Source: a virus
Virus record (IMG/VR): IMGVR_UViG_3300045988_160359
Span: 1 to 53,569 of that record
Direction: 5' to 3' (one strand)
DNA: 53,569 bases
Shown piece by piece: positions 12,622 to 42,693 of the stretch. Position 1 is the stretch's first letter, and every line of letters begins with the position of its first letter. The translations under genes were made by a program, and so were the position numbers. The notes beneath the pieces were generated by a model. It was not told the origin of the DNA, searched no databases, and saw only the letters and a list, made by a program, of their open reading frames with translations.

Positions 12622-12733
12622 AGTTTTTCTCCTTTTCTATTGGTGGGGCTTACCATCGTTTCCCCTACCTTGAATTTGTAATGTTATTATAGCATGGAAT
12701 GGGGGCGTTGTCAACCCCCATTCCAAACTTTTT

Positions 12734-12949
12734 TTACGGGGGATCGTGCTTGCGGTACTCAGTCAGGTCAGGGTCGCCAATCCATTCAGAAAAGTCAACC
12801 CAGGAGTCGAACACGTGAAGAATTTCGATTTCATCAGGTTCAAACACCCCGCCACAACAGGCGCAGATTACGAAACCATTTTCAAGCTGGATACCAGCCT
12901 GAACGCCATCAGAATGGTCGCCCTTAAAAAGCACTTGCTTAATAGGCAT
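12734..12949 (-). CDS. Hypothetical small protein (71 aa)
   Basis: Intact ORF with a CACCGG motif. Confidence 0.4.
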   Translation of the reverse strand: MPIKQVLFKGDHSDGVQAGIQLENGFVICACCGGVFEPDEIEILHVFDSWVDFSEWIGDPDLTEYRKHDPP

Positions 12950-13016
12950 TGTACTTACCTCCTTGTTTTAGTATAGTCATTATACCACATGAGAAAGGGG
13001 CTGTCAAGCCCCATTC

Positions 13017-13673: not shown

Positions 13674-13784
13674 TATTCATTCTCCTTTTCTCTTGGTTGG
13701 GCTTACCATCGTTTCCCATACCTTAATTACATTACATATTATAGCAGACAGGGGTGAGGTTGTCAACCCCTGTCTGCTATTTTT

Positions 13785-14231
13785 TTACAGGTTTCGCAAA
13801 ATTTCCATCAGGAGGTCGGCGTTGTATGCCATATTGTGAGTGTTTGCCGTCCACTCGTTGAGGTTGCGCTGTTCGTCATCGAACAAAATCGCGTTGGGGC
13901 AGGTCGCACAGTTGGACTTGGGAACGCCATAGGGGACAATATGGATTTCGTCCCACTGAACGCTGGGGAGATGTTTTGCCAGCCAGTCGCGCTTGACTTC
14001 GGCTACTTCGGCATTGAACTTATCCGTTCCGCTCTTGGACAGCCAGCTGATGATGCCGATATTGTAGCCACGCGCCTGCAAGCGGTTCAGGTAGCGGGCG
14101 AGGGTGGAGAAATGGACAAGCGGGCGAGCGTCCGCATATACGCTTGTGTCAGCGGCTTCCAGCTTTGCCAGCCAGTTAGGGTCGCCATACAGGTCGGCGA
14201 TAGTCCCGTCCATGTCCAGATAGATAGTCAT
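13785..14231 (-). CDS. HAD-superfamily phosphatase (DxDGT)
   Basis: MTIYLDMDGTIAD at the N-terminus after GAAAGGAAG. The track ORF extends to 14354. Confidence 0.55.
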   Translation of the reverse strand: MTIYLDMDGTIADLYGDPNWLAKLEAADTSVYADARPLVHFSTLARYLNRLQARGYNIGIISWLSKSGTDKFNAEVAEVKRDWLAKHLPSVQWDEIHIVPYGVPKSNCATCPNAILFDDEQRNLNEWTANTHNMAYNADLLMEILRNL

Positions 14232-14384
14232 AGTATCAACTTCCTTTCTTGATTGTAATGCTATTATACAGGATAAAACGCAATTTGTCAACAGTTTTTT
14301 TCGGTTTTGCTCTTGGTCATTTCGCACAAACTTTCGGGATGCGCGCTTGGGCAAATTTGTTCAATTTACCTATTGACAAAATTG

Positions 14385-14520
14385 CTGGCAGGGTGTATAA
14401 TGGAAATTTCGAGCGCCAGGGCCGTGGGCGCTCGGCCGAGTATACCACAAATAGGGGTGTTTGTCAATAGGTAAATTGAACAAAAAAAATCTCCCAAATT
14501 TGGGAGATTTTTCAATTTAC
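14385..14520. promoter_or_regulatory. Convergent-promoter / hairpin / terminator module
   Basis: Plus strand TTGACA-N17-TATAAT. Minus strand TTGACA-N17-TATACT. Hairpin tcgagcgccagggccgtgggcgctcgg. Terminator tctcccaaatttgggaga. Confidence 0.55.
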
Positions 14521-14720
14521 TTGTTGGCGTGGAGAATGGAGTGCAGGATTACGACAATGAGCCAAATGACCAGCACCAGCTTCCACGAGAACACGATGGC
14601 GAAAGAGCCGATGGACGCGATGCCGATAGCAGGGAGAAGCCAGCAGAACAGCCAAACCAGTCCGGCGGTACACAGGAAGTCGAAAGCGGCAAGTGCCAAA
14701 AACAACAGAACGATGAACAT
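14517..14720 (-). CDS. Small hydrophobic membrane protein (67 aa)
   Basis: Almost entirely hydrophobic. The RBS is GAGAGGAG. Confidence 0.5.
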   Translation of the reverse strand: MFIVLLFLALAAFDFLCTAGLVWLFCWLLPAIGIASIGSFAIVFSWKLVLVIWLIVVILHSILHANK

Positions 14721-14722
14721 TT

Positions 14723-14920
14723 TTATTCTCCTCTCTTAAATACGATGGTTTTGTGTGTGGTAAAGGTCGCTCCGCGAACAAGCGGGTCATTTGCCAGGTC
14801 ATTTGCGATGAATGACAAGGCTTCATTCTCGTTCTTGAACCACTCGCTATTAGTGAAGCGTTCGCCCCAAGAAGTTATGCCCCACCACTCGATGTTGTAG
14901 TAGACATCTTTGGTTTCCAT
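14723..14920 (-). CDS. Hypothetical small protein (65 aa)
   Basis: RBS AAGGAGGG. Confidence 0.5.
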   Translation of the reverse strand: METKDVYYNIEWWGITSWGERFTNSEWFKNENEALSFIANDLANDPLVRGATFTTHKTIVFKRGE

Positions 14921-14933
14921 TGTTAATCCCTCC

Positions 14934-15083
14934 TTAGTAAATTTGTTCGCCGTTGTGATAGCGTTCGTATCTCGCTTCGAGGAAGTCGAGAATGAACTCG
15001 AAATCGTCCGCGTCCGCGGGGTCTACGAACGCCTTTTCGAGGATTTCGCCGGTGTGGTCATTGAAAACTTTAATCATTTCCAT
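14934..15083 (-). CDS. Hypothetical small acidic protein
   Basis: The start is placed at MEMIKVF after AAGGGAGG. Confidence 0.4.
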   Translation of the reverse strand: MEMIKVFNDHTGEILEKAFVDPADADDFEFILDFLEARYERYHNGEQIY

Positions 15084-15149
15084 TTTGTTGTCCTCCCTTA
15101 TTTGATGATACCATTCTAACACAGAGGGGCTGATTTGTCAACCCCTATT

Positions 15150-15626
15150 TTACAAATTTTTGCTTTCTGCCACGAAATATTTTGCGCCATACTGCGCCAC
15201 AATGTCCTTGACCTTTTTGCTCTCAGCTTGCGTGGCACAATAGAAATTAAATAGCGTGTGTTTGTTGCTAATCTCAATGTATGAGTGTGGAATGTCTCGC
15301 AGGTCAAAATCCACGGCGGCTCGATACTTAGTAGGAACAGTCATTTCGATTTTCCACAACTTTTCTTTGCGCGCCAACTCCTCAACCCACTTAACCGCCA
15401 GCACACCAATGAAATTACAGGCGGCGGTGATGCCCATTTTTGCCAACGTAGAAACGCCGTCAATGTTAGTCAAAATAATAACATAGGAATAGAAGCCATA
15501 GGTTAGCGCATTGATACCGGCGGCAACCCATTTATTGCCTTTAACAGTCAGAATAGACTTGATGGTGGACAGCACCACATTCACAGCGGTACAGATAATG
15601 AATAGAATAATAGCGTTCATAATCAT
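15150..15626 (-). CDS. Membrane protein with two N-terminal TM segments and a cytoplasmic domain
   Basis: The start is placed at MIMNAIILFIICTAV after AAAGGAG. Confidence 0.45.
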   Translation of the reverse strand: MIMNAIILFIICTAVNVVLSTIKSILTVKGNKWVAAGINALTYGFYSYVIILTNIDGVSTLAKMGITAACNFIGVLAVKWVEELARKEKLWKIEMTVPTKYRAAVDFDLRDIPHSYIEISNKHTLFNFYCATQAESKKVKDIVAQYGAKYFVAESKNL

Positions 15627-15762
15627 CACTCCTTTTTCAGTATAATAATAATAACACATTTAATTGAAAATGTCAAGAAAAATTTTTGTCGTAGTTAAAT
15701 TCTCACAAGATTAGTTTTTTGTTCCGTGTAGTTAGTTATAGCTAAACTTGAAAAGAGGGGCG

Positions 15763-16134
15763 TTAATGCCCCTCTGTTAGTTTGTTATACATACTCCACA
15801 GCGTTTCACAGGAATGGTTAGTCTGTTCAGCCATCCATACAATTTGGTCATCAGTCGGCAGGTATTTATCATCACGCCACCCGAAAAATCTTTCACAGGA
15901 CTGGTATGCCTTATACTCGTCCTCTGTCAGTTTGCCGCGCAACCGCCAGTCCCAGCAAACAGAGTCCACCATAGACCATATACACGCGCCTACGATAGTC
16001 AGTACCATAATCGCAACCGTTGCATATAGCACCAGTGTGGATTTTATCATACCATACACCAGCAGACCGAAACCACACACAATGAGGAAATTGCGCCCAT
16101 ACCTTTTAAGGGTCAACTTCTGAAAATCAGACAT
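15763..16134 (-). CDS. Membrane protein (123 aa)
   Basis: Two hydrophobic segments. Confidence 0.5.
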   Translation of the reverse strand: MSDFQKLTLKRYGRNFLIVCGFGLLVYGMIKSTLVLYATVAIMVLTIVGACIWSMVDSVCWDWRLRGKLTEDEYKAYQSCERFFGWRDDKYLPTDDQIVWMAEQTNHSCETLWSMYNKLTEGH

Positions 16135-16345
16135 TTTCTCTACTCCTTAACATATTGTCAGTAAATTCGTTGGAGAACTCCTCGGCGAAATCCTCACCAT
16201 AACCACGATTGGCAATTACCTCCATAACTGTCTCAATGCCGGACATATAATAGGGATTGCCGTTGATGGCATCATAACGCCCTTGGAACATAGGGCATTC
16301 GCGCAGGTCGCTGAAAACCATCTGATACGCTTTCTTCAACTCCAT
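16127..16345 (-). CDS. Hypothetical small protein (72 aa)
   Basis: Intact ORF. Confidence 0.45.
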   Translation of the reverse strand: MELKKAYQMVFSDLRECPMFQGRYDAINGNPYYMSGIETVMEVIANRGYGEDFAEEFSNEFTDNMLRSRENV

Positions 16346-16424
16346 TGTTCTTACCTCCTTGTTTCAGTATAGCCATTATACCGTATTACAGGATAGAAGT
16401 CAATCGTCAAATTGCACAAAATTG

Positions 16425-16560
16425 CGGCGAAAAATTTGTGGAGTATACCTATTGACAAAATGCCGGGCGCCACAATCGTTGGCGCGCGGCCGAAAATGTC
16501 AAGTGAAAAATTATACAAAATTTGGGCTGGATTTTTGTTCATCCAGCCCAAATGATTTTT
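16425..16560. promoter_or_regulatory. Degenerate copy of the promoter / hairpin / terminator module
   Basis: It has TTGACA boxes and the gccgggcgccacaatcgttggcgcgcggc hairpin, but weak -10 elements. The gggctggatttttgttcatccagccc terminator is present. Confidence 0.4.
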
Positions 16561-16807
16561 AGTCCTTTTCAAAAATAAAATCCGGTTTGAAAATGTAGAG
16601 GAACGCCACAGCGTAATGGAAAATCGGAATGATTGAGCCGGTGATGACTGTCAGCCAGTTAGAAAACGGACTGCGCTTGCTTTCGCCCCGGTTCTTGAAT
16701 GCTTCCTGCGCCTGTTCCTTGTTTTTCTTCATAGTCGAAATGATGCTTGCGATGCCCAGCCAGTAGAGAACGATACCGATGATGTAAATAATGAGAATGA
16801 TTTTCAT
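16559..16807 (-). CDS. Small membrane protein (82 aa)
   Basis: Two TM segments. Confidence 0.5.
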   Translation of the reverse strand: MKIILIIYIIGIVLYWLGIASIISTMKKNKEQAQEAFKNRGESKRSPFSNWLTVITGSIIPIFHYAVAFLYIFKPDFIFEKD

Positions 16808-16891
16808 AAATGTATCTCCTTTTTATTTGATTTACTTTTCCGATTTTGGAACGAAGCCACGGTTACTGGCTTTTGCGCTGAGAGTAAATGA

Positions 16892-17173
16892 TTATTCAAA
16901 CAAAACTTTTTCCCGGATGGTATAGCTTGCGATAATAGCACCGGAAAGCAAAACATAGGTTTCAAAACTGTATTTTTTCTTTTTGGAGGTATACGCCCTA
17001 CGCTTGCCGTTGAAATGCTCCTGAATGGTAAAACCCATTTCTGCATCAACGAGGTACAGGAAATAACTCAGTTCTTCAAACAGAGATAAAACCATTTCTT
17101 CGGCATCAGCTCGATTACCAAACAGTGCTATTAGTCTGGATGAATTTTCAAATACGGCATACCCAGTTTTCAT
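16892..17173 (-). CDS. Hypothetical small protein
   Basis: The start is placed at MKTGYAV after AAAGGGAGG. Confidence 0.4.
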   Translation of the reverse strand: MKTGYAVFENSSRLIALFGNRADAEEMVLSLFEELSYFLYLVDAEMGFTIQEHFNGKRRAYTSKKKKYSFETYVLLSGAIIASYTIREKVLFE

Positions 17174-17190
17174 TTTACTTACCTCCCTTT

Positions 17191-17391
17191 TTAGTGCTTT
17201 GGAACGAAACCCCGGCAGAATTGACGACACCAGGTGCGCTCGTTCTTTCGCTTCATACATTTACTCTCGCCCATACTGTTCATTACCTTGCCGTGGTTAT
17301 AACCCCAGTATTCACAGTTGGAACATCTTACCTTGTCAGGCTCTACGCAATAACGGTCGGCCAGTTCAGTTCTGATTTCAAAAGTAGTCAT
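17191..17391 (-). CDS. Cys-rich small protein (66 aa)
   Basis: CVEPDKVRCSNCEYW...C...C. Confidence 0.45.
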   Translation of the reverse strand: MTTFEIRTELADRYCVEPDKVRCSNCEYWGYNHGKVMNSMGESKCMKRKNERTWCRQFCRGFVPKH

Positions 17392-17479
17392 TCGGGGTAT
17401 CCTCCTTTATTTGATGTATTTATTATACCACACTTCTTGGTTGTTGTCAATAAAAAATGTGGGATTTCTCCCACATTTT

Positions 17480-17710
17480 TTATTTATTTTCTAACCGCAT
17501 TTTATCAGATCCGATAAGCGCGGCCAGCAGGTTTGAGGTATCACGGACTTGGCTCATAGAATACTCTTCGCCAATGTTGGAAATAGCGTATTCTTGTTCG
17601 TAGTCATACATCAAATCGAACAGGTGAGAAATGACCTCACGGGCGTCTTGAAGTTTGTTCTTTTCCTCTTGGGTAAGTTGAACCTGAACGTTTGAGGTAA
17701 TAATGTTCAT
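17480..17710 (-). CDS. Small protein (76 aa), paralog of 17726..17953
   Basis: LTQEEKNKLQDAREVISHLFDLMYDYEQEY aligns with LTENERKTLRDAYDILNELYDVIADNDCEY. Confidence 0.45.
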   Translation of the reverse strand: MNIITSNVQVQLTQEEKNKLQDAREVISHLFDLMYDYEQEYAISNIGEEYSMSQVRDTSNLLAALIGSDKMRLENK

Positions 17711-17725
17711 TTGTTGTACCTCCTT

Positions 17726-17953
17726 TTATTTACCGATTTCCACTTTTTCAGTGGGGGCAAGCATTTGAAGCACATTGGCTGTAAGCGCGACGTCCACTCT
17801 GTCATAGCCATTCCCGCAAGTATCGCTCACATACTCGCAATCATTATCGGCGATGACATCATACAATTCATTGAGAATGTCATAGGCGTCGCGCAAGGTT
17901 TTCCGTTCATTCTCTGTCAACTTGGCATAGATGGGAGCTTTGATAATTTCCAT
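17726..17953 (-). CDS. Small protein, paralog of 17480..17710
   Basis: The start is placed at MEIIKAP after AAAGGAG. Confidence 0.45.
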   Translation of the reverse strand: MEIIKAPIYAKLTENERKTLRDAYDILNELYDVIADNDCEYVSDTCGNGYDRVDVALTANVLQMLAPTEKVEIGK

Positions 17954-18022
17954 TTTGATATTCTCCTTTCTCTTGGTATTATCTATTATAGCAGATAAGG
18001 ACTTGTTTGTCAAGCCCTTATC

Positions 18023-18352
18023 TTAATTTTTATTCATCAGGTAGTTAGTCTCGATAGTCCAACCGCAGTCTTGACAGGTGTAGTAAAATGTTTCGCTCAT
18101 ACGGTAGCGAGTAGAGGAAGAGAAGCGGTATTCGCCGCCGCACTTGACACATACGCCATTATTGAAAGTGTCGCAGTCATTGATGTGTTCCTGTCCCATC
18201 ATAGCACCAACACCGAAGAAGATAGCACAGCAGATAATGAATGACAGTACCTTGCTCACCCAACGGTCGCAACACCCAATAGCAACAGATAAACCGATAG
18301 GCAGACCAGCGACACCACCCATAAGCAGACCACCGATAATTACATCAGACAT
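18023..18352 (-). CDS. Membrane protein with a C-terminal zinc ribbon
   Basis: The start is placed at MSDVIIGG after AAGGGAGG. CVKCGG...CQDCG. Confidence 0.45.
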   Translation of the reverse strand: MSDVIIGGLLMGGVAGLPIGLSVAIGCCDRWVSKVLSFIICCAIFFGVGAMMGQEHINDCDTFNNGVCVKCGGEYRFSSSTRYRMSETFYYTCQDCGWTIETNYLMNKN

Positions 18353-18422
18353 TTTTTCGTCCTCCCTTGTTTTGTTATACTCATTATAGCAGAAATGGGG
18401 CTTGTTGTCAAGCCCCAATTTT

Positions 18423-18746
18423 CTACTTTACTACATAAAATTCGGGGTGGCGTTCTTCATTCTTGCGAATGCGCTTGACCAACTGTTGAGGTAAGCGGTT
18501 TTTGCCAGCACTCTTGTATATAGCGACAGCCCGTTCAAAGGTTGCGGGGTATGCGGTGATGATGAAATTCTCATATAAGTCCAGCACCAAAATGATGCCA
18601 GTCGAGAGCAAACGCAGGCGCGCAGTTTGGCGTTGGTCAATGACCTCAATCATCACGCGGTCAGAATATCCGAGATATTCCTGTAAGAGGGCGAGCCGGT
18701 TAGCCCGCTCCTCTGTCAGATGGTTCGACATAGTGTAGTTTTCCAT
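18423..18746 (-). CDS. Hypothetical protein (~107 aa)
   Basis: The start is placed at MENYTMSN after GGGGTGG. The track's 186-aa ORF fuses it with the upstream gene. Confidence 0.4.
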   Translation of the reverse strand: MENYTMSNHLTEERANRLALLQEYLGYSDRVMIEVIDQRQTARLRLLSTGIILVLDLYENFIITAYPATFERAVAIYKSAGKNRLPQQLVKRIRKNEERHPEFYVVK

Positions 18747-18751
18747 ATTAC

Positions 18752-18928
18752 CACCCCATATTGAACACGAAGCGCACCAGACCGATACAGGCAACGCCAT
18801 ATAGGATAGAGCCAACGAGGAAGTGCCAGTCGTGCGTCTGACGATAGACCATATACCCGCCGACACACTGAACGCCAGCGAAGCCAGCGAGGGCGAGGAT
18901 TGCGAGGATTGCGATAGTAGCCATTGTG
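18752..18928 (-). CDS. Small membrane protein (~58 aa)
   Basis: MATIAILAILALAGFAGV... after AAAGGAGG. Confidence 0.35.
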
Positions 18929-19044
18929 AATGACCTCCTTTAATTGATGGTATAAGTATAGCATACCTACTGGGCGTTGTCAACCGTCAAATTGCACAAA
19001 TTTCGGGATAAAAAATTGTTGAAAATACCGAACACAAAATGCTT

Positions 19045-19190
19045 GACAAATTGGCTGGGCTGTGGTATAATGGAATTTCCGGCCGCAACAGTCGTGGGCG
19101 GCTGGCCAAATTATACCATAGAAATGCTATTTTGTCAATAGGCAAAATGCACAAAAAAATGAGCCAAAATTTGGCTCATTTTATAATTCC
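19045..19190. promoter_or_regulatory. Convergent-promoter / hairpin / terminator module
   Basis: TTGACA-N17-TATAAT on both strands. Hairpin ccggccgcaacagtcgtgggcggctgg. Terminator gagccaaaatttggctc. Confidence 0.55.
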
Positions 19191-19284
19191 TATTCCGATA
19201 AGACAGAGGTACAGAAGAACACCACCGAAACCGAAAAATACAATCAGTCCCATAAACCACTGCCACAATCTTTCGTGTTTCATA

Positions 19285-19470
19285 TTATCTCAGCCCCCTA
19301 AAATCAACCACTTTGCCGTCTACCATCTCATGCCAGTAGAGCTTATCATTGTAGCGGATAGCCCGCACGCGGTAGTTGTGATTATCCCATGTGGTGTATT
19401 CTTTGTCGATTACATACTCGCCATAGCGGAGAACAGAATTGATAAATGTGTTGGTAAATGTCTGTTTCAT
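19285..19470 (-). CDS. Hypothetical small protein (61 aa)
   Basis: Intact ORF. Confidence 0.45.
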   Translation of the reverse strand: MKQTFTNTFINSVLRYGEYVIDKEYTTWDNHNYRVRAIRYNDKLYWHEMVDGKVVDFRGLR

Positions 19471-19480
19471 ATTCGCGCCC

Positions 19481-19702
19481 TCACATTCCGCGGACTGCGC
19501 CGCACTCGCTCATACCGTTTTCATCAAAGCGGGCGATAGGCTCGCCGTTCATCTCGCGGAGTTCAGCCCACGCTTCACCAAAGCCGCCATCAGCCAGCAT
19601 CAGCCGCACCAGCTCACACGCCGTTTCAAACTTGTTCCACGCGGCTTCATCACCGCTCACGCGCACGACTTCAACATTATTGACTACCACACTGTATTCC
19701 AT
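19481..19702 (-). CDS. Hypothetical small protein
   Basis: The start is placed at MEYSVVVNN after GAGGGAGG. Confidence 0.4.
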   Translation of the reverse strand: MEYSVVVNNVEVVRVSGDEAAWNKFETACELVRLMLADGGFGEAWAELREMNGEPIARFDENGMSECGAVRGM

Positions 19703-19783
19703 CTTGAATACCTCCCTCATTTGATAATACAATTATAGCACGCTTATTTATATTTGTCAATAGAAAAAATGAAAAAATCCGAA

Positions 19784-20062
19784 TTAGCTTCGGATTTTTT
19801 CAACGGTGATGATATTGGAATTGTCCCAGTTATAAGACACGGAGAACTGCTCATATAGACCATATATAAACCGCGTCCAGCCTTTGGTGCAGAACTCTCT
19901 CTGCCAATATCTTTCCAGAGGGCGCAGCTCCCACTGGATATACAACTGTTCTTCAAGGAAATCGCATATACTGGTGTCGGTGTCCCACTGGGCAGTAGCA
20001 GTTTCGCTATACTGCGCCTCGCTGTCGATGAACCTAATCTTGTACTCACGTGTCATACTCAT
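19784..20062 (-). CDS. Hypothetical small protein
   Basis: The start is placed at MSMTREYK after AGAGGAGG. Confidence 0.4.
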   Translation of the reverse strand: MSMTREYKIRFIDSEAQYSETATAQWDTDTSICDFLEEQLYIQWELRPLERYWQREFCTKGWTRFIYGLYEQFSVSYNWDNSNIITVEKIRS

Positions 20063-20174
20063 GACCTCCTCTGTTTTATGTATACAGTATAGCACAGGGG
20101 TGCGTGAATGTCAATAGTCAAAATGCACAAATTTCGGGATTTGGAATGTATAATTTTTGTTCATAATGCCTATT

Positions 20175-20290
20175 GACAAAATTGTTGGGACATGGTATAA
20201 TGGTAAATTTCGCGCGCCAGGGCCGTGGGCGCGCGACCGAGTATAGCACAAATGGGGCGCGTTGTCAACAGGCAAAATGACCAAAATTTT
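20175..20290. promoter_or_regulatory. Convergent-promoter / hairpin module
   Basis: Plus strand TTGACA-N17-TATAAT. Minus strand TTGACA-N17-TATACT. Hairpin tcgcgcgccagggccgtgggcgcgcga. Confidence 0.55.
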
Positions 20291-20346
20291 CAATCGAATT
20301 ATGGGCATAATGCCATATATAAAAAACAAGGGCTTTCGCCCTTGTC

Positions 20347-20538
20347 TTAGTAGCCCCTCTTTTCCAGTCTTTCCAGCCGGTCGGCGAGGGAACGCGCCAG
20401 CAGAACTTTTTTCCATTTCATAAGCTCGGCTTTGTTGCCCTCGGTGTTCGCCCAGATGCCCCAGGTGATGCCCTCGTTGATGATTTCCGCTTTCTTCATG
20501 CCCATCAGGTTTTCGAGATACTGTTCAAAGTTTGTCAT
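20347..20538 (-). CDS. Hypothetical small protein (63 aa)
   Basis: Intact ORF. Confidence 0.45.
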   Translation of the reverse strand: MTNFEQYLENLMGMKKAEIINEGITWGIWANTEGNKAELMKWKKVLLARSLADRLERLEKRGY

Positions 20539-20635
20539 AGCGTTTAGCTCCTCTCTTTTGATGGTTTAATTATAGCAAGTTAAACGCAGTTTGTCAATAG
20601 TTTTTTCAAAAAAAATAAAAAAAATAGTCGAGGGA

Positions 20636-20800
20636 TTAACCCTCGACTACTGCGACAACCTCGCCGTTCATACACGCGTGAACGTCGAACTCAACGCCTT
20701 TCCAGCTATCGCTGTAAAGGTACGTCCAGTCATCGCCCAGCACATAGGGCAGAGGCTTTACAGGGAGCACGCCGTCGGGAGTCTTTACAGTAGTCATCAT
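20636..20800 (-). CDS. Hypothetical small protein
   Basis: The start is placed at MMTTVKTP after GAAGGAGG. Confidence 0.35.
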   Translation of the reverse strand: MMTTVKTPDGVLPVKPLPYVLGDDWTYLYSDSWKGVEFDVHACMNGEVVAVVEG

Positions 20801-21106
20801 AGTCTTGCGACCTCCTTCATTTGATGGTTTAATTATAGCACCGTAGGTACATTTTGTCAAGCCCTTTTTCAAGAAATTTCAAAAATTTCTTCGTAGCCAT
20901 CATCCCATACCTGCCGGCATTTAGTGTTATCTTCATTAGCGTATTCGTCATAGCCAAAGCCCATGGACTCAACACGTCCTACAAAAATCCATTCCATTTA
21001 ATTATCTCCTTCCTTTTATCTGTTTGTATTATAATACAAAGGAGGGCTTTTGTCAATACTTTTTTCAAAATTTTTTCAAAAAAAAATAGGGCTTCCGCCC
21101 TATTTT

Positions 21107-21415
21107 TTAGCAGTAGGCAAGCGTCATAGTCGCCCATTTCAGCACGGAAATTTGATTACACGCTTTGCCGATTTCCATAGCTTCACGCTTTGTCGCCACG
21201 CGCTTGCTCCGGTCAACGAACCAAATTCCCCCACTATACCACACGCCACAATTTCCGCCGTAGTCTCTCACCGCGTCAATGGCTTCCTGTGCGGTCTTAC
21301 ATTCGATGCCCTCTGTGGCAACCTGCCAGCCGGATTTATAGTTTACCTTTTTGCCCATTTTGAGGGTCAGCCCGTCATTGTTGCCCAGCTTGCGGATAGA
21401 ACGAATGTTAATCAT
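21107..21415 (-). CDS. Hypothetical protein (102 aa)
   Basis: Intact ORF. Confidence 0.5.
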   Translation of the reverse strand: MINIRSIRKLGNNDGLTLKMGKKVNYKSGWQVATEGIECKTAQEAIDAVRDYGGNCGVWYSGGIWFVDRSKRVATKREAMEIGKACNQISVLKWATMTLAYC

Positions 21416-21534
21416 GTTGTGTATCTCCTTTGTTGTTTTGTTGTACTCATTATAACACGCCTATTTCGTTTTGTCTATTGGCAAACTATACAAATCGGGA
21501 TTGCGAATTTTGTGCGAAATTTTCGCATTTTTCT

Positions 21535-21640
21535 CTTGACAACTGGTGGGCTGCTGTGGTATAATATTTCGGGGCGCCACGTGCTTGATGAGCGCGACGA
21601 TGCTCGTTAAAATTTTAACAATCCAACAGCAAAAAATAAA
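21535..21640. promoter_or_regulatory. Promoter / hairpin module, followed by one TTTTAACAATC iteron
   Basis: Plus strand TTGACA-N18-TATAAT. The hairpin is cggggcgccacgtgc.... aaaattttaacaatcc lies at about 21613. Confidence 0.45.
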
Positions 21641-21646
21641 GGACGC

Positions 21647-21835
21647 TTATTCAGCGTCCCATTGAGTGATTTCTTCAAGGGTCAGCCCATAGAACTCAAC
21701 AGCTTCTGCCAGCTCCGCGGCTTCTTCCTCTGCGCCATAGCTTGTCCAATAGGCGTCCAGTAAGTTGATGATTTTCTCATAGGCTTCATCGGAAAGAGTA
21801 TCAATGATGTTGGAAACCTCGAATGTGTTTTTCAT
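21647..21835 (-). CDS. Hypothetical small acidic protein (62 aa)
   Basis: Intact ORF. Confidence 0.45.
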   Translation of the reverse strand: MKNTFEVSNIIDTLSDEAYEKIINLLDAYWTSYGAEEEAAELAEAVEFYGLTLEEITQWDAE

Positions 21836-22180
21836 TTTATGTACCTCATTTCTTAATTTCTGTATTCATTATAACACGCTTATTTGTGTTTGTCAATAGT
21901 TTTTTCAAAAAAAATAAAAAAAATAACAGGGCTTTTGCCCTGTTATACTGTGGGGATAAAACTCACAACCTTGCCGTGCTTGCGTTCCTCGACTTTGCGC
22001 TCCTGTGCGCTCAGACCGTAGAACCATGCCTGTGTGCCGTCCGCGAATTTGTACCAACCCTGTGTGCTTTTTTTCATTTTTGTGTACCTCATTTCTTAAT
22101 TTCTGTATTTAGTATAACACCTATTTCGGGATTTGTCAATAGTTTTTTCAAAAATAAACAGGGCTTTCGCCCTGTTTATT

Positions 22181-22369
22181 TTATTTAATTTTCAGAATTT
22201 CCTTGCCCAGCTTGCCGGACTTGAATACACGGCGGACGCTCACGATGTTGGCTTTTCGCAAAAACCCTATTGCGATGTTGTGGGCTTCGTTGCCCGTGCG
22301 GGCGATGATGGAAAGCGTCTGCCCCTCGGCGTTGATGCAGATGTAGGTATTAGCGATAGTGCGTGTCAT
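22181..22369 (-). CDS. Hypothetical small protein
   Basis: The start is placed at MTRTIANT after AAGGAGG. Confidence 0.4.
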   Translation of the reverse strand: MTRTIANTYICINAEGQTLSIIARTGNEAHNIAIGFLRKANIVSVRRVFKSGKLGKEILKIK

Positions 22370-22382
22370 AATTACTTCCTCC

Positions 22383-22619
22383 TTAATACATTTCCTCAGA
22401 CTGAGCAAGATAGAAATGGTCAATCTTGGTCAAGTCCAGCAGTTCGTACTTTTCCACACCCTCAGCAAGCAGGGCGTTCAGCTTGTCCACCAGCTCCGTA
22501 CCATTGTCCTTGCGTGCCTGAACGAACAGAAAGTCAGAACAGGTTTTCTCCCACTGTGTCCCTCTGTTGTAAACAACAGGCTCTTTCGTGGTGTAGCAGA
22601 CTCCATAGATGTTAGACAT
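22383..22619 (-). CDS. Hypothetical small protein
   Basis: The start is placed at MSNIYGV after AAAGGAGG. Confidence 0.4.
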   Translation of the reverse strand: MSNIYGVCYTTKEPVVYNRGTQWEKTCSDFLFVQARKDNGTELVDKLNALLAEGVEKYELLDLTKIDHFYLAQSEEMY

Positions 22620-22691
22620 TGTATCGTCCTCCTTTGTTTTACTGTAATCATTGTAGCACACATAGGGCAATTTGTCAAGAGGTTTTTTCAA

Positions 22692-23520
22692 AAATAACCT
22701 ACTTATTTTCGGGACAGAGATTGTGATTATTTTAACAATCGGATTTGCGATTTTTTTTCTTTAACACTTTAATGTAGTGAAGTCTGGGGCGTTGCGACCG
22801 TGTTCGGCATCCAACAGTGAATGTGAAATTTTTAACAATTAAACAGCGACTTCACCACATCCACACATTGTGAATTTTTTAACAATCTTGCTCGGTCAGC
22901 GAATGTATCAACTGTGCCGTGTGTATCCTGCTTGCTACCTGTGCAAGCGCACTCTTTACTCTCTTGCTCTTGGCTCTCACATTGTTAAACTTTTAACAAT
23001 CTTGCTCGCCCCTCTGTGAGGACTGTACGTTGCGGGATGCGCGCCGTTCAGCGCCCGCACTGCTGTGTTGTTTGGCAATTGTGCGAGGGCTTATTCTTGG
23101 GCGATTAGGGCCGTTAACGATGATGAACCTAAAAGAGAAATGGAATACTTACATTAGATTTGTTGGTGCGCGGTTCCCGGTGAGCCGACCGGTGGGAAGC
23201 GCGGTCTATTCTCTTATTGTTGGTCTATTCTCCTCCACCATCTACTACCCATAGCTCACCCTCTATCTCATACCCTACCATACCATACTACTATACTACA
23301 TTGTTAATACATTAACAATGTATCTATCATTGTGTTGTGTTGTGTGTTGTTCTCTTTGTCTGTTGGTCGTTCGCTCGTTGGCTCGCTCTGCCTTGTCCAC
23401 TGTGCCGTGCGTGTCCTTGTCCTCTTTTGGTTGAGTGATTGTTAAATCTTTCACAATCTTACTACATTATTAATCTTTTAACAATCTTACTACATCGTTA
23501 AATTTTTAACAATCTTAGGG
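22692..23520. repeat. Non-coding region with at least 7 TTTTAACAATCTT iterons, a 26-bp palindrome and a CA-rich to GT-rich switch
   Basis: Iterons lie at ~22735, 22843, 22884, 22990 and three tandem copies at 23440-23510. Palindrome tacattgttaa-taca-ttaacaatgta at ~23280. It is flanked on the left by ccataccatactactatactac and on the right by tgtgttgtgttgtgtgttg. Confidence 0.6.
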
Positions 23521-23536
23521 CAACAAAAAAACCTCC

Positions 23537-23632
23537 CTCAGTGAGGGAGGCAGATGAGGCACATCAAGATGCCAGTGCCCGCGACAACAGCGACCGCGGT
23601 GATGAAGCGCACGACTTTGTAGATGATAGACA
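23537..23632 (-). CDS. 31-aa hydrophobic peptide
   Basis: MSIIYKVVRFITAVAVVAGTGILMCLICLPH after AAAGGAGG. The cctccctcactgagggagg hairpin plus T-run follows. Confidence 0.3.
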
Positions 23633-24063
23633 TAGACCATTCCTCCTTTGATGATACTATTATACCAGATTTCAGGATGCGTGTCTATTGACAGAATACA
23701 CAAATTTGCAAGAGATTTTTTGTGGAGTTTGTATTTATTGCGAATGAGGACCGCGACAGCCATTCGCGGTCCTGCGAGTTGAGGGGTTGTATTGGGGATG
23801 GTCTAGTCTTTCCGCGTGCGCCAAGCCCAAGAAGGTCTCGATAGTGTTCAGATTTTTTCTCAGATAAAAACCGACCGGGGGGGGTGGGTTTCGGGAAAAA
23901 ATTTTTTTTGCTTTTTATTTTTTTGTTTGGCTGGTACAAACTCTCACCAAAACTTTTTTCAATTCAAATAACGGTAAAAAGAATTACTTTTTAATTTTAT
24001 TTCTACCAAAAAACCAAATAGGAAAAAATAAAATTAATCCTATCAATGCTAATGCTTCAAGAA

Positions 24064-24207
24064 TCATTTCTTATTCTCCTTCTTAGGGCGACCACGTTTA
24101 GGGTTTTCGCCCCATACAATTTGATGAACTGCTTTAGTAGCATAATAATTAGCTTTTTTCTGCATTTTAGCAGCGAGGGCATTTCCAAAACTTTTATATT
24201 TAGGCAT
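24064..24207 (-). CDS. Small basic protein (47 aa)
   Basis: MPKYKSFGNALAAKMQKKANYYATKAVHQIVWGENPKRGRPKKENKK. Confidence 0.35.
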   Translation of the reverse strand: MPKYKSFGNALAAKMQKKANYYATKAVHQIVWGENPKRGRPKKENKK

Positions 24208-24208
24208 A

Positions 24209-24526
24209 TTACATTACTCCATTAATAGCATCAGTTAGTTTTTGAGGAATTTCAATTCCTAAATCATCTAATACTTCTTTAGCGCGTAAATATTCTATTC
24301 TACTACCATATCGTTTACTCACTCGCACTCCAACATAAACTTCACCATTATATTCAATAGTATAAAATTCCATACGGTCGCCAGGAGTAATACCATATTT
24401 TTGTCTTAAATTTTTAGGAAAAACAAGACGGCCTAAACTATCAACCTAATGGATAGAACCTTCATTATGAACTATTGCTTGGCCTTCTCGCATTACAATA
24501 TCAAAATAATTTTTTCCATCTTCCAT
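24209..24526 (-). CDS. AbrB/MazE/SpoVT-type swapped-hairpin DNA-binding protein, with 1 in-frame TAG
   Basis: VDSLGRLVFPKNLRQKYGITPGDRMEFY matches the AbrB N-domain consensus vDelGRvvIP.elR..lgi..gD.lei. A single TAG lies 27 codons after the ATG. Confidence 0.55.
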
Positions 24527-24530
24527 AAAA

Positions 24531-24824
24531 TCACTTCTCCTCCATTATATGACATTTTTCTCCAGAAGACTTAATAATATGCCAAATATACTCACCATCA
24601 TTAATAACTCCTAAATACTTGTCATTATTATTTACATATGTATCCAATTCCCAACCTGTGCCAACAGCATTAATTTGAAAATATTTTTTGGGTGCTTTTT
24701 CATCATAAGCTGCCCATACGCATGGATTATTATTTACATCTAATCCAGCAGATACAATATCAGTCAGATGGTCCATAATATGAGTTGACCCTGGAGTTTC
24801 AATTAAATATTTATAAATCTTCAT
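24531..24824 (-). CDS. Hypothetical protein (97 aa)
   Basis: Intact ORF. Confidence 0.45.
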   Translation of the reverse strand: MKIYKYLIETPGSTHIMDHLTDIVSAGLDVNNNPCVWAAYDEKAPKKYFQINAVGTGWELDTYVNNNDKYLGVINDGEYIWHIIKSSGEKCHIMEEK

Positions 24825-24825
24825 A

Positions 24826-25152
24826 TTACTCCTCTTTTAACACTTCTACCCAAACACGCACATCTCTATCTTCTGCATTCATTACTCGATTTTTATCATA
24901 TACAAAAATAGGGCAATGTAGTGGATAACAATTTAATCGCATAATTTTAATATCAATATTATCCACATAAATAATCATATTATCTTGAATATACGGCCAA
25001 TAATCTTGACCTTCACCCAATAGGATACAAGTATATCCTGCTTCAATTAATTGTTCAAGATTAATATATTGATTAAATGATACACCCATAAATAGAATAG
25101 TAGTGCCTCGTTTAAAATTTTTTAAAATATATTTAATCTATTTTTCAGTCAT
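24826..25152 (-). CDS. Hypothetical protein with 1 in-frame TAG near the N-terminus
   Basis: MTEK-TAG-IKYILKNFKRGTTILF continues into track ORF 24826..25089. Confidence 0.4.
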
Positions 25153-25334
25153 CACCATTCCACCCTTCCGGTAAAAATATATCTAAAATTCTTTGCAATA
25201 AATCACTCGCAGCAAATATTGGACCACCAATAAAAATATTAAACAAACAATTAATTTATTTTCACCAGCGCTTTGAATTGCATCAATATATTCAAACATT
25301 ACTAATGCTGAAATGATTATCCAAAAAATAACAA

Positions 25335-25733
25335 TTACATAGGCTCCCAAAAATATTCACCATCCTTATATTTATTTACTCGAACATTGTGGACTAATAC
25401 TCTTATAGAGCCGTCTTCTTCTAATTGATTGGCGTATCCAGGCGGTGGCGGGCCCTTGGACAAAACTGAATAAGCGATTATATTAGAATTTTCATAATTA
25501 GAGAAGTCTGTAATTTTTGCGGATTCTTTCGCATTAAATTGGAGATGTAATAGCAAACAACAAGGAAAACTTTCTTCAATATTATTTGCGTCTTCATAAT
25601 AATCTGCTATTAAATTATATTTTTGTTCAATGTTTTCAGGGTCAAGAAGTTTAGCGACTCCTTTTGTAAACAATATATTATATATAATAGATAATATTAA
25701 TAATATACTTAATATAATAATAGCAATTACCAT
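25335..25733 (-). CDS. Membrane-anchored protein (132 aa)
   Basis: N-terminal TM segment. The RBS is AAAAGGAG. Confidence 0.45.
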   Translation of the reverse strand: MVIAIIILSILLILSIIYNILFTKGVAKLLDPENIEQKYNLIADYYEDANNIEESFPCCLLLHLQFNAKESAKITDFSNYENSNIIAYSVLSKGPPPPGYANQLEEDGSIRVLVHNVRVNKYKDGEYFWEPM

Positions 25734-25754
25734 AAACTTCTCCTTTTATTTTTT

Positions 25755-25880
25755 ATTATAATAATAATACAAAAAATTTTTTTTATTGTCAAATTTTTTC
25801 CAATTAATAGTATCGTTTAAAAATTTTTTAAATGCATTTATTAAAATTTGACACCTGGAAAAATTTTTTGTATAATGAAG
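25755..25880. promoter_or_regulatory. Divergent promoter region between the minus-strand regulatory block and the plus-strand late module
   Basis: Plus strand TTGACA cctggaaaaattttttg TATAAT at ~25848-25876. Minus strand TTGACA-N17-TATTAT at ~25790-25760. Confidence 0.5.
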
Positions 25881-25904
25881 ACGTAAAAAAATCTGGAGGT
25901 AATA

Positions 25905-26966
25905 ATGATAAAATTAGATTATTCCTTACAAACTCCAGAAGAAAGAAATGAATTAGTCAAGAAAATATTAGAGGAAACCCCAGACCCCTCTCCTCGATAT
26001 TTAGAAATATTAGGGGACTATATCATTCTTTGTATGGAGAAACAAGAGAAAAAGGAGCGTAAATTATTAACTGATAATCGTATGGCAACAGTTAATAAAC
26101 GTGAAACATCTTTTGAAGGTCTTGTTTCCCAATTTGAGAATGGCGAAGATGGAATTTATAATTTAATTACTGAAAATAAAAATACAATATTTTAGCCTAA
26201 AATTACAATTACTAAAAAAGATATAGAAGAAATACCTCATTTAAAATAGTTAAGAGACGCCATTACTACTTGGGAAGCCAAATTACGAGTTAGCGAAGGA
26301 CGCGAGGCATTTATAATTAAACGTGCTATTATTGAAATGCGTAAAGATTAGTATGTTATTAAAAATGCAGTTCGTCGTCCAATTGTTATGACTAAAATTA
26401 CTCGTTCAAGAAATTTTATTCCATTAGAGGACACGACTTGCATTTTTGATGATGATGGTTATCCAATCCCGGATGGCGTTTCACTCTTAGACCCTAGAGT
26501 ATGTTCTGCAATTTTATGTAATTATTCTCGTTTAAAGCAAGATAGTTGGGGAGATTTTGAAAGAGATTTATGGTATATTATGGAAGATTTCGATAATTTA
26601 TGTACCATTGCTCTTAAAGATTATCCCTTATATGATAGAATAGTTGAATATAAAATTGATGGATTATAGAATATAGACATTCAAAAGAAAATTCAAGAGG
26701 AATTTAATATTACTCATAGTTTAGAATATATTTCTAGTTTATGGCGTAATAAAATTCCAAAATTAATCGCCTCTGCGGCTGAAGACCAATACCTATATGA
26801 TTATTATTTACATAAAGCAAAAGGTAAATATAAAAAATGTAGTCGCTGTGGGCAAATTAAATTAGCACATAATAAATATTTTAGCAAAAATAAAACTAGT
26901 AAAGATGGTTATTATAGTATTTGTAAAAAATGCCGTAATGCTAAAAACAAGGGCAAACAGTTATAA
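25905..26966 (+). CDS. Hypothetical protein with a C-terminal zinc ribbon (~353 aa, 4 in-frame TAG)
   Basis: Track fragments 25905..26195 and 26388..26669 are in one frame, joined through TAGs. The C-terminus reads CSRCGQIK...YYSICKKC. Confidence 0.5.
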
Positions 26967-33600: not shown

Positions 33601-34536
33601 ATGTTTAAGGATTTTTTAAATTCTCGTTTAGGCGTTGGTAAAAATCCACCTAAGTCACAGGCTAAGTATGTTGAGTTTGGTTATGGTCAGGTTGAGCCAA
33701 ATCACCTGTCTGCACAAAGAACCGCTCAAATTTATGCTCAGTTGCCTGCTAACAAGGATATTAATATTCTTGAAAATGGCCAATTTGTCAAGTATGATTA
33801 CGCTGCTAATGCCAATGGTATTGGTGAAGTGAATTTTACTGGCAAGGGCGAGTGGATGCTAGTTTATAATGAGATTAAGTTATATCGCGATCATCCTGAT
33901 GGAACTAAGCAGTGGGATTGCGAATTTGCTATGCTAAAGGACGACTATCAGGCTCGTATTTATTCTCCATACGATTGGGAGCATACCGAGGTTGAATATG
34001 GTGGACGTTTCTGGAATGGTGTTGATGAAACTGGTGCTGATCACAAGGTGCTTGAGCACACTGTTGCTTTAGACCAGGGTCTAAAGACTGTTACCATCGC
34101 TGGCGAAGTTTATGATGTTAAGGACAATAAGTTTACTTATAATGGTGTAGAGTATGAGATTGATCCTAAGACCAATCAGACTAAGACTCCTGTGCCTGTA
34201 AAGTATACTTATGATAAGGTTCTAACTGATGTTGCTGACATTTACGAAGAGCTGACTTGGACTAATGATCCATATAAGAAGCTTGGTGTTTATCATGAGA
34301 AGCGCATGACTCCAGGCACTGCAATGGTTCCTCGTGTCTTTAAAACTAATGTTGGTGATCATTATACTACTAATATGATTAATGAAGATAGTGTTTCTGT
34401 TGGTGACATTTTAGCTCCAGCAGCTGCTGACGGAATTCTTGTAAAAGATGAGAGTCAGGATATGAAGTGGCAGGTTGTTAAGGTATATACTATGCCTGAT
34501 GGACAACGTGGCGCTAAAATTCTACGTATTGCGTAA
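33601..34536 (+). CDS. Head protein (311 aa), TAG-free
   Basis: Intact ORF with a strong RBS AAGGAGG and higher GC than its neighbours. Confidence 0.45.
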   Translation: MFKDFLNSRLGVGKNPPKSQAKYVEFGYGQVEPNHLSAQRTAQIYAQLPANKDINILENGQFVKYDYAANANGIGEVNFTGKGEWMLVYNEIKLYRDHPDGTKQWDCEFAMLKDDYQARIYSPYDWEHTEVEYGGRFWNGVDETGADHKVLEHTVALDQGLKTVTIAGEVYDVKDNKFTYNGVEYEIDPKTNQTKTPVPVKYTYDKVLTDVADIYEELTWTNDPYKKLGVYHEKRMTPGTAMVPRVFKTNVGDHYTTNMINEDSVSVGDILAPAAADGILVKDESQDMKWQVVKVYTMPDGQRGAKILRIA

Positions 34537-34553
34537 GAAAGGAGAGAAGAATA

Positions 34554-35660
34554 ATGTTAGATAGAAACAATTTAGTTGCTTTAATGAAGACTGTTGCTAA
34601 GGCTGATCCTTCTTCTCCTGTGGCTTACAGTTATAATGGTCAGAACCTTTCTTATGAGGCTCTGAACGATACTTTACGTAATGAGATGAATGAGCTAGCT
34701 GGTACTAATGCTCTATATCGTGAAAATAAAAATTTAATTTTCTCAATGATTGAGGAGACTTTGGATGAAGTTCTTCCTAAGAAGGTTTCTCAATCTTATG
34801 AGCAGTTTGCTGAAGTTAAGCAGTTTGCTCAGGGTGATAAGCCTATTTTCCGTCGTCCTCTAAATACACGCGCACGTGCTAAGCAGTTTGTGACTCGTGT
34901 TGGACTGGCTGGTATCTATGAAGTCTTCAAGCTGGGACCTGCTGAGAACGAGAGCTTTGAGGTTCGTACTTCTGCTATCGGCGGAGCGGCTCAAATCGGC
35001 TTCGAAGAGTTCTTAGATGGTCGTGTTGATTTTGCTGAAGTTACCAAGATTATTATGGATGGTATGGATGAACTGATTTACAAGGAAGTTGCTTTGGCTT
35101 TGAAATCTTCTATTAATCAGCTACCTCCTGCTAACCGTGTTGCTGCAGCTGGTTTTGATGAAGGTGCTATGGATCGTTTGATTACCATTGCTTCTGCTTA
35201 TGGTACTCCTACTATTTATTGTACTTATGAATTTGCTGTTCGTATGATTCCTAATGAAGCTTGGCGTTATACTGAAGCTATGAAGACTGAGCTGTGGAAT
35301 ACTGGTCGTTTGGCTACCTATAAGGGGACCAAGGTTGTTATTCTAGAGCAGGGCTTCGAAGATGAAAGTAATACCCGTAAGGTTATTGATCCTGGTTATG
35401 CATGGATTATTCCTACTGGTGTTGATGGCAAGCCTGTAAAGATTGCTTTCGAGGGCGGAACTATTGTTGATGAATTCAGCAATTATGATCGTTCTCGTGA
35501 GATTCAGGTTTATAAGAAGGTCGGCGTTGGTTGTATGTTGGCTAACAACATTTGCTCTTATGTTGATACTTCCTTAATGGGTCAAATGTATACTTGGAAT
35601 TATGATGGCATTACTGGTAAGGTTGTTACCTATGATGGCCGTAAGAGTGGTACTATTTGA
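34554..35660 (+). CDS. Putative major capsid protein (368 aa), TAG-free
   Basis: Size, position after the scaffold gene, strong RBS GAAAGGAGAG, GC-richer codon usage and a very strong terminator immediately downstream. Confidence 0.55.
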   Translation: MLDRNNLVALMKTVAKADPSSPVAYSYNGQNLSYEALNDTLRNEMNELAGTNALYRENKNLIFSMIEETLDEVLPKKVSQSYEQFAEVKQFAQGDKPIFRRPLNTRARAKQFVTRVGLAGIYEVFKLGPAENESFEVRTSAIGGAAQIGFEEFLDGRVDFAEVTKIIMDGMDELIYKEVALALKSSINQLPPANRVAAAGFDEGAMDRLITIASAYGTPTIYCTYEFAVRMIPNEAWRYTEAMKTELWNTGRLATYKGTKVVILEQGFEDESNTRKVIDPGYAWIIPTGVDGKPVKIAFEGGTIVDEFSNYDRSREIQVYKKVGVGCMLANNICSYVDTSLMGQMYTWNYDGITGKVVTYDGRKSGTI

Positions 35661-35689
35661 TTAAAACCTTAATATAACTATTGTTTAAG

Positions 35690-35728
35690 GGGAGAAGGGA
35701 TTTACTCCCTCTCCCCTTATTTTTTTTA
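35690..35728 (+). terminator. Strong rho-independent terminator after the capsid gene
   Basis: ggggagaagggatttactccctctcccc followed by ttatttttttt. Confidence 0.65.
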
Positions 35729-35748
35729 GAGAAAAAGGAGATAATAAA

Positions 35749-42663: not shown

Positions 42664-42693
42664 TTTATATTATGAGAGAAAGGAGTCCCGTTT

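Follow-up and report, generated by a model that had tools for sequence, protein, structure and literature searches.

A conserved leftward operon with an AbrB/SpoVT-type gene at the early/virion junction of a TAG-recoded phage

The stretch of DNA analysed here, called the window throughout, is the 53,569 nt of the IMG/VR virus record IMGVR_UViG_3300045988_160359. The subject is a compact operon on the minus strand (23984-25733) with seven open reading frames (ORFs) whose starts and stops touch or overlap, one of which (24209..24526) encodes a predicted DNA-binding protein of the AbrB/SpoVT type and contains an in-frame TAG codon. The block lies at the junction between an early region and a virion module and has a GC content of 27-32%, like the virion side. 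A first-pass annotation of the window had described an AT-rich minus-strand block divergent from the virion module, and its composition and the location of its promoters bear this out. The same annotation counted four small proteins besides the AbrB-like one; we count six ORFs (132, ~68, 108, 97, 47 and 27 aa), and the label "regulatory block" was overstated because three of the ORFs encode membrane proteins and two have no known function. Related loci and lineages are given L numbers, and P0001-P0004 are database protein homologs. The features of the locus are as follows.

23860..23935, minus strand: A/T-rich stretch with a weak hairpin at the end of the low-GC block (from sequence and fold), uncertain as a possible terminator
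23984..24067, minus strand: 27-aa peptide with one transmembrane helix, its ATG overlapping the stop of the 47-aa gene; 96-100% conserved in nine close loci
24064..24207, minus strand: 47-aa basic protein with the motif PKRGRPKK; 83-100% conserved in the clade
24209..24526, minus strand: 105-aa AbrB/SpoVT-type protein (profile, Pfam and fold) with an N-terminal extension of ~18 residues and TAG at codon 27 (24446-24448)
24531..24824, minus strand: 97-aa DUF7352 protein, no TAG here (Pfam PF24043, E 2.9e-10; phrog_3848)
24826..25152, minus strand: 108-aa protein (ORF reading) with TAG at codon 5 (25138-25140) and the Shine-Dalgarno sequence GGAAGGGTGG upstream
25145..25350, minus strand: protein of ~68 aa with two transmembrane helices, frameshifted here (frames 25183-25350 and 25145-25246)
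25335..25733, minus strand: first gene in the block, free of TAG; 132-aa protein whose N-terminus has a transmembrane helix; 64-98% conserved in relatives
25764..25792, minus strand: predicted leftward promoter, TTGACA, 17-nt spacer ATAAAAAAAATTTTTTG, TATTAT (11/12 consensus positions)
25848..25876, plus strand: predicted rightward promoter of the virion operon, TTGACA, 17-nt spacer CCTGGAAAAATTTTTTG, TATAAT (12/12)
25905..26966, plus strand: 353-aa gene of the PHROG family "sigma factor" (phrog_5767, E 2.2e-53), 4 TAG, first of the divergent virion operon

From ~24,000 to the end of the window the GC content is ~30% and the plus strand carries the virion module, which is sensible solely with TAG as a sense codon. 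From ~5,500 to 24,000 it is 42-50%, and the ORFs are short and found on the minus strand only. When TAG was read as sense, the longest ORF of the plus-strand module grew from 381 to 2772 codons and the large terminase (10-11 TAG) and portal (9 TAG) genes were restored; these three ORFs are whole only under this reading, that of genetic code 15, and the TAG recoding of the module is unambiguous.

The gene set to which the block belongs was examined by comparing the number of TAG codons with that of CAA and CAG together in the database gene calls of L002, L018 and L020. These calls were used in place of a window-only test, which was underpowered and had an early set contaminated by dubious ORFs. 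Early genes contained no TAG against 76 CAA or CAG codons (0/41 genes with TAG), block genes 6 against 22 (4/12 genes) and virion (late) genes 82 against 185 (19/22 genes). The block differed from the early genes (p = 2.5e-4) and was not distinguishable from the late genes in codon share (p = 0.39). The pattern in all three lineages, a recoded stop codon avoided by early genes and used by late ones, is the one that the model of Borges et al. calls for. The block also prefers CAA over CAG, as does the virion side, and a GC step at its downstream end, where the content climbs from ~30% to 44% across 23860..23935 in the window and relatives alike, recurs in every relative checked. By its GC content, its preference for CAA and its tolerance of TAG, the block is assigned to the recoded gene set. 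The early and recoded sets differ jointly in GC content, promoter type and TAG use.

In a standard-code ORF listing the AbrB-like gene appears as a 26-aa piece (24446-24526) and a 54-aa piece (24209-24373), with the TAG at 24446-24448 between them. With TAG as sense it forms a single 105-codon ORF, which matched PF04014 (MazE/AbrB) over residues 26-63 with 27.7 bits (cut-off 24.7) and PHROG 4681, annotated "antitoxin" (E 5.3e-10). The score against TIGR01439, the NCBIfam AbrB-family domain, fell just short (25.9 bits, cut-off 28.3), and placement in the AbrB subfamily was therefore taken from the profile and fold results. A whole-library hidden Markov model search recovered 255 relatives, most of them ~86 aa long and starting at residue 18-20 of the AbrB-like protein. 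A profile of 54 members of this family was compared with solved N-domains and matched SpoVT (E 1.7e-12), AbrB (E 5e-11) and Abh (E 5e-9). An AlphaFold2 model of the monomer built with the 54-sequence alignment had a predicted local distance difference test score (pLDDT) of 81 (with 4 sequences the pLDDT was 51 and the model unusable), and its best Foldseek matches were 1yfb, the N-domain of AbrB (probability 1.00, target-normalised template modelling score 0.73, E 1.8e-3), and 2w1t (SpoVT), with modest E-values. The C-terminal part is a conserved, family-specific two-helix unit. By Pfam, profile and predicted fold, then, the product of 24209-24526 is a predicted DNA-binding protein of the AbrB/SpoVT type, in line with the AbrB/MazE fold first proposed for it. 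A tblastn search with this protein against 50,697 GenBank phage records gave no match. The codon-27 TAG aligns with K9 of AbrB in strand 1. A fusion of a small upstream ORF to an AbrB domain, joined at the TAG, was considered and rejected because homology to the 86-aa members begins ~8 residues upstream of it.

Four full-length close homologs (P0001-P0004) have Q at position 27, where their DNA has TAG, and TAG was exchanged with CAA in relatives at four positions in block genes. These are codon 42 of the AbrB-like gene (L002), codon 5 of the 108-aa gene (CAA in L008, CCA in L015), approximately codon 49 of the same gene and Gln26 of the two-helix membrane protein. As judged from these alignments, the TAG of the AbrB-like and 108-aa genes is a sense codon read as glutamine (Gln). 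In the 26 residues that precede the TAG the amino acids are conserved (KNYFDIVM, NEG-IH) and codons 6, 9, 11, 23, 25 and 26 have synonymous changes, which indicates that the N-terminal extension is translated, a point on which the first-pass annotation had hinged. As ATG, GTG and TTG are all absent between the codon-27 TAG and Met52, the full-length product would need amber suppression, as had been claimed. Without read-through the gene would give a 26-aa peptide, at best together with a fragment lacking the DNA-binding hairpin. A single TAG shortly after the start codon, as earlier described for both genes, is present in the 108-aa gene; in the AbrB-like gene it lies a quarter of the way in.

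The position of the TAG was then compared across relatives. All 16 loci of ~6 lineages, with protein identities as low as 58%, have it at codon 27 while adjoining synonymous sites vary, and there it is fixed in the window's own clade only. Among deeper syntenic recoded lineages the AbrB-like gene has no TAG in L018, L020, L033, L038 and L168 and has it at unrelated positions in L032, L035 and L046; TAG is found instead in a neighbouring gene (DUF7352 or DUF488). The expectation of TAG at the equivalent codon of homologs was thus borne out in the 16 loci and failed in the deeper relatives. In the 108-aa gene, 8 of 10 loci have TAG at codon 5, which is the ancestral state, with two replacements, in L008 and L015. 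From this comparison, the conserved trait is the block's tolerance of TAG, not the location of the TAG, which seems to be one of the ordinary codons of the recoded set and not a purpose-built switch. The mutational path may explain part of the retention at codon 27, since TAG reaches CAA via either CAG or the stop codon TAA; one likely reason for its being kept in one clade is that the CAG intermediate is rare in these genes.

Both promoters between the block and the virion operon are predicted to be of the sigma-70/sigma-A type, and the sigma-70-type promoter that had been proposed to diverge from a consensus one at ~25848-25876 was confirmed, at 11/12 and 12/12 respectively. The distance of ~75 bp given for the pair was not; the -35 hexamers are 55 bp apart and the centres ~84 bp. 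L001, L008, L015 and the divergent L002 all retain the leftward promoter, and the pair, including the spacer signature, stands back-to-back in nine lineages with variable DNA between. Both members belong to a class with an A-tract/T-tract spacer built around AAAAATTTTT. The pattern of this class occurs five times in the window, with none predicted by chance, and the same class is found at 41996-42024 (plus strand) and 6178-6206 (minus strand). AAAAATTTTT itself occurs 7 times against 1.45 expected, and three of these occurrences are within the divergent intergenic region. As both promoters are of the same conserved class in nine lineages, co-regulation is indicated rather than hierarchy, and the sequence suggests that the block and the virion operon would be switched together. 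The shared design suggests a poor fit with a regulator that acts upstream of the late programme. Nor is the label "late promoter" that was given to the rightward promoter justified, since it is a perfect host-type sigma-70 consensus.

AbrB-like genes were found in the same place, divergent from an operon of sigma-like, YonG and terminase genes, in at least 12 lineages. The AbrB-like gene is constant, and its partner genes vary by lineage (DUF7352, DUF488 or none). The genomes of the relatives are ~130-200 kb, the longest related contig being 197.7 kb. The relatives informative about the host are SPbeta-, EF1- and phiCD211-type phages, Sundance and Geobacillus E3, together with SPbeta-type Pfam domains. 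A Bacillota host, which had been deduced from the AbrB family, is likely, with the AbrB fold a weaker basis for it than these relatives and the sigma-A promoters. Metagenome-assembled genome (MAG) contigs with the capsid gene were mostly in Bacillota bins and also in bins of Bacteroidales, Treponema and Gastranaerophilales; the mixture points to binning noise, and no specific host is therefore claimed.

ARAGORN searches found no tRNA gene in the window, in the 10-kb flanks of the AbrB locus of 10 relatives, in the 8 kb to the left of the window or near the capsid gene of 19 MAG contigs. A scan for an amber-tRNA pattern found none in the fetched loci, and the IMG/VR matches listed were unrelated contigs. 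Related TAG-recoded phages carry two or three amber suppressor tRNA genes (PMC10607447). Since the window and the fetched flanks have no suppressor tRNA, the source and timing of suppression are assumed from those related phages.

The reading that we favour, with a probability of about 0.6, is that the block is a small operon, conserved and transcribed leftward, in a large SPbeta/EF1-like phage that infects gut Bacillota and reads TAG as Gln, and that its TAGs are ordinary codons. The host would be a standard-code member of the Bacillota, and the AbrB-like and 108-aa proteins, with one TAG each, would be completed only after the phage's amber suppressor became active. Both would for that reason appear in the middle or late phase, at the same time as the products of the virion operon rather than earlier, and their TAGs would be Gln codons drifting within genes expressed in the suppression phase. 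A dimer or tetramer of the AbrB-like protein would most likely bind phage DNA rich in A/T, whether at the twin promoters or the early ones, and so help to set the early-to-late transition, perhaps in cooperation with the AT-hook-like 47-aa peptide.

Several points weigh against this reading. In the window-only test, the TAG share of the block (2/15 Gln codons) was statistically indistinguishable from that of either the early or the late genes. The invariance of codon 27 in all 16 clade loci, while flanking synonymous sites vary, leaves room for some selection on that codon. The suppressor tRNA is absent from the window and ~40 flanking loci, most of the genome lying beyond the window. The near-perfect host-type promoters could fire at the onset of infection, in which case translation would be the sole source of delay. 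The timing of expression is read from sequence alone, and the DNA binding of the AbrB-like protein and its targets are predicted.

Among the alternatives, the AbrB-like protein might be directed at the host, as a phage copy of a transition-state or sporulation regulator that reprogrammes stationary-phase or sporulation genes; we consider this unlikely. Its nearest solved relatives are SpoVT and AbrB, the likely host belongs to the Bacillota, and abrB and spoVT appear in the sporulation-gene table of a survey of human-gut phages (PMC10294663). The protein shares with AbrB, Abh and SpoVT of Bacillus subtilis the N-domain signature D29, G32, R33 (the D-x-L-G-R loop), P37-K38 and R41, as well as the profile matches and the best fold matches (1yfb, 2w1t). 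This likeness is, however, confined to a 45-residue N-domain with ~28-32% identity. The phage protein is ~18 residues longer at the N-terminus, its two-helix C-terminal unit is its own and unlike that of AbrB or SpoVT, and the strand-1 consensus R-K (R8 and K9 in AbrB) is H-Q, with the Gln encoded by TAG. Its gene is phage-encoded and has a fixed place between the early region and the virion operon, which points to a role within the phage.

The first-pass annotation proposed that the early single TAGs are a selected gate, such that the regulators appear under suppression and reinforce the late programme in a positive-feedback or commitment circuit. The conservation of TAG at codon 27 in its clade and its ancestral state at codon 5 both favour such a gate, as does the position of the AbrB-like gene next to the virion-operon promoter in every lineage examined. 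The genetic code as a temporal regulator is, moreover, a published general model for recoded phages (Borges et al., bioRxiv 10.1101/2021.08.26.457843), and genes with one TAG would be completed at a lower level of suppression than late genes with 4 to 63. The circuit is nevertheless not upheld, as TAG positions are unstable in the deeper relatives, in which the AbrB-like gene lacks the codon or has it elsewhere, and codon 5 became CAA and CCA in close ones. No link is seen between the AbrB-like protein and either suppression or the late promoter. TAG is also missing from the genes for the major capsid protein and other abundant virion proteins, and so is no gate for the entire late programme. 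We regard a selected gate as similarly improbable to a host-directed role.

Four virion genes on the plus strand have no TAG (33601-34536, 34554-35660, 35749-36336 and 39769-40848), the major capsid gene being among the TAG-free genes. Three of the four differ from their TAG-rich neighbours in having a GC content of 0.38-0.41 and at least as many CAG as CAA codons, which is consistent with avoidance of TAG where efficient translation is required. Because these abundant virion genes (33601-36336 and 39769-40848) lack it, TAG behaves as a tolerated but avoided codon and as no universal lock on late genes.

A further proposal, which we find quite doubtful, makes the twin promoters, the AbrB-like protein and the AT-hook-like peptide the master early-to-late switch of a large and so far undescribed family of SPbeta-like, TAG-recoded gut phages, with the amber codon sensing the level of suppressor tRNA as a threshold timer. 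With increasing suppression, regulators that have a single TAG would reach full length before the rest and go on to control transcription of the virion operon with its many TAG codons, so that the change of code would be coupled to transcription.

It is very unlikely that the AbrB-like protein serves as a MazE/VapB-like antitoxin, paired in a type II toxin-antitoxin or abortive-infection system with a toxin from one of the small genes beside it. The match to PF04014, named MazE_antitoxin, and to PHROG 4681, its best PHROG family, the small size of the protein and the tight overlap of its gene with its neighbours are shared with MazE, VapB and PrlF antitoxins, and one remote cluster carries a PrlF-type antitoxin name in a source database. 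This reading fails for want of a toxin partner, as the neighbours (DUF7352, the 47-aa basic peptide and membrane peptides) match no toxin family and the partner genes change among lineages while the AbrB-like gene persists. No PADLOC defence-system model matched, and in sequence and fold the protein is nearer to AbrB/SpoVT than to MazE, whose structure gave a weaker match.

That TAG is a true stop, leaving a decayed gene or a 26-aa peptide and a 54-aa fragment from Met52, is scarcely credible; standard-code calling yields exactly these two pieces and the window has no suppressor tRNA, but the frame is open and protein-conserved across the TAG in all relatives, the domain match spans it, TAG and CAA are exchanged elsewhere in the same genes, the essential large terminase and portal genes require TAG as sense, and the fragment from Met52 would lose the DNA-binding hairpin.

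Among the other block proteins, no significant family match was obtained for the 132-aa protein (Pfam, NCBIfam and PADLOC scans) or the 47-aa protein (family scans), and the other block proteins had no matches in PADLOC and NCBIfam. The 108-aa protein had no match in Pfam, PHROG, NCBIfam or PADLOC, and a sequence search of the PDB was not significant for it or for the DUF7352 protein, on which a literature search was empty. The DUF7352 homolog contains TAG in L018 and L020. The 47-aa protein is recognisable in L026, L032 and L020, with PKRGRPKK kept in the clade and degenerate in L032 and L020; on the motif (an R-G-R-P core with basic flanks) it is putatively AT-hook-like. The two-helix ORF is split in the window by a T5 run that is T6 at the same homopolymer in five relatives. 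It is intact in L001, L008 and L011-L016, the frameshift being confined to the present window, and is judged to be coding because changes at third positions are synonymous. The frameshift is either a sequencing error or a real inactivation. This ORF is still recognisable in the distant lineages L028, L029, L042 and L020; its Gln26 codon is TAG in L002-L007, and L010 has TAA instead of CAA. A terminator scan made no call at 23860..23935, and a scan of the window against Rfam at the gathering threshold found nothing.

Directly downstream of the block, a noncoding, strand-skewed region of ~1.3 kb contains 8-10 copies of a 20-bp palindrome, ATTGTTAA-N4-TTAACAAT, at 22717-23521 (nine in 21500-24100), including three tandem 28-bp repeats at 23445-23517. 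The array is kept in L001, L008, L009, L010, L015 and the divergent L002 and was not seen in L018 or L020. From its layout, it could be an operator, iteron or centromere-like array.

On the virion side, homologs of the 353-aa sigma-like protein are found in Enterococcus phages EF1 and VRE9, phiCD211 and Sundance, and the genes that come after its own are, in order, YonG_N, large terminase, portal and YonD_N. The terminase gene is uninterrupted in the window. In L018, L020 and L168-L170, genes for HNH and GIY-YIG homing endonucleases interrupt the terminase region, and this interruption resembles an annotated phage intron in Enterococcus phage EF1. Further along, the 2772-codon ORF (42676-50991, plus strand) has 63 in-frame TAG codons and the consensus A/T-spacer-class promoter at 41996-42024 upstream; from its size and position it presumably encodes the tape-measure protein.

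The early region (6178-23687) contains ~44 near-perfect sigma-A promoters (TTGACA-17-TATAAT, 11-12/12) in 17.5 kb. The minus strand carries nearly all of them, a TGn extended -10 and GC-rich spacers are present in most, and each precedes a short TAG-free ORF, in many cases followed by GC hairpins. A composite unit also recurs there, consisting of a plus-strand consensus promoter, a conserved GC hairpin (AAATTTCGrGCGCC...GGCGCyCG) and, ~80 nt away and facing the first, a minus-strand consensus promoter. The unit is bracketed by a 25-nt inverted repeat, which is perfect at 14356-14380 / 14460-14484. Such units, which may be of a convergent-promoter or antisense kind, were found at the following positions.

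14356-14486
7237-7320
8896-9016
10198-10319
16435-16489
19036-19157
20153-20287

A second low-GC plus-strand block with TAG-containing genes (2824-5345) is found on the opposite flank of the early region and includes the following.

2941-3096, plus strand: 51-aa ribbon-helix-helix-like ORF
3308-3766, plus strand: 152-aa ORF with 5 TAG and a helix-turn-helix-like C-terminus
2852-2824, minus strand: promoter TTGATT-17-TATAAT with a AAAAATTTTT spacer

The phage can be compared with several known systems. A related group of TAG-recoded phages, the phAss-1 group, has been described (PMC10607447). Code-15 gut phages share with the window low GC content, TAG-free early genes and TAG-rich virion genes, kinship to EF1 and the alignment of TAG with Gln in homologs. 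Here, unlike in those phages, the TAG in question belongs to the gene of a small predicted DNA-binding protein, transcribed in a divergent operon, rather than to a lysis or structural gene; the two gene sets, early and recoded, also differ sharply in GC content (45-50% against 30%) and in promoter type, and the 53.6-kb window has no suppressor tRNA. The virion operon has the gene order of SPbeta, phiCD211 and EF1 (sigma-like, YonG, YonF large terminase, YonE portal, YonD), with YonG_N and YonD_N Pfam domains and PHROG 5767 "sigma factor" first. In EF1, however, the genes upstream of the sigma-like gene are others and in the same orientation, and the divergent block with AbrB and DUF7352 genes is specific to the metagenomic lineages. 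The archaeal proteins C68 of pSSVx and C56 of pSSVi, which were among the fold matches, are also small AbrB-fold proteins encoded by mobile elements, but they are distant in sequence, belong to another host domain and involve no recoding.

The analysis defines a conserved junction module, with an AbrB-like protein, a DUF7352 protein, a small basic peptide, membrane peptides and twin promoters, in an uncultured family of large TAG-recoded Bacillota phages, and it shows a division of the genome into two gene sets distinguished simultaneously by GC content, promoter type and TAG use. A change of code as a regulatory input has so far been a model from gene-content statistics only. If the amber codons in small regulators time their appearance, they would be a concrete and genetically simple input from the code change to transcription.

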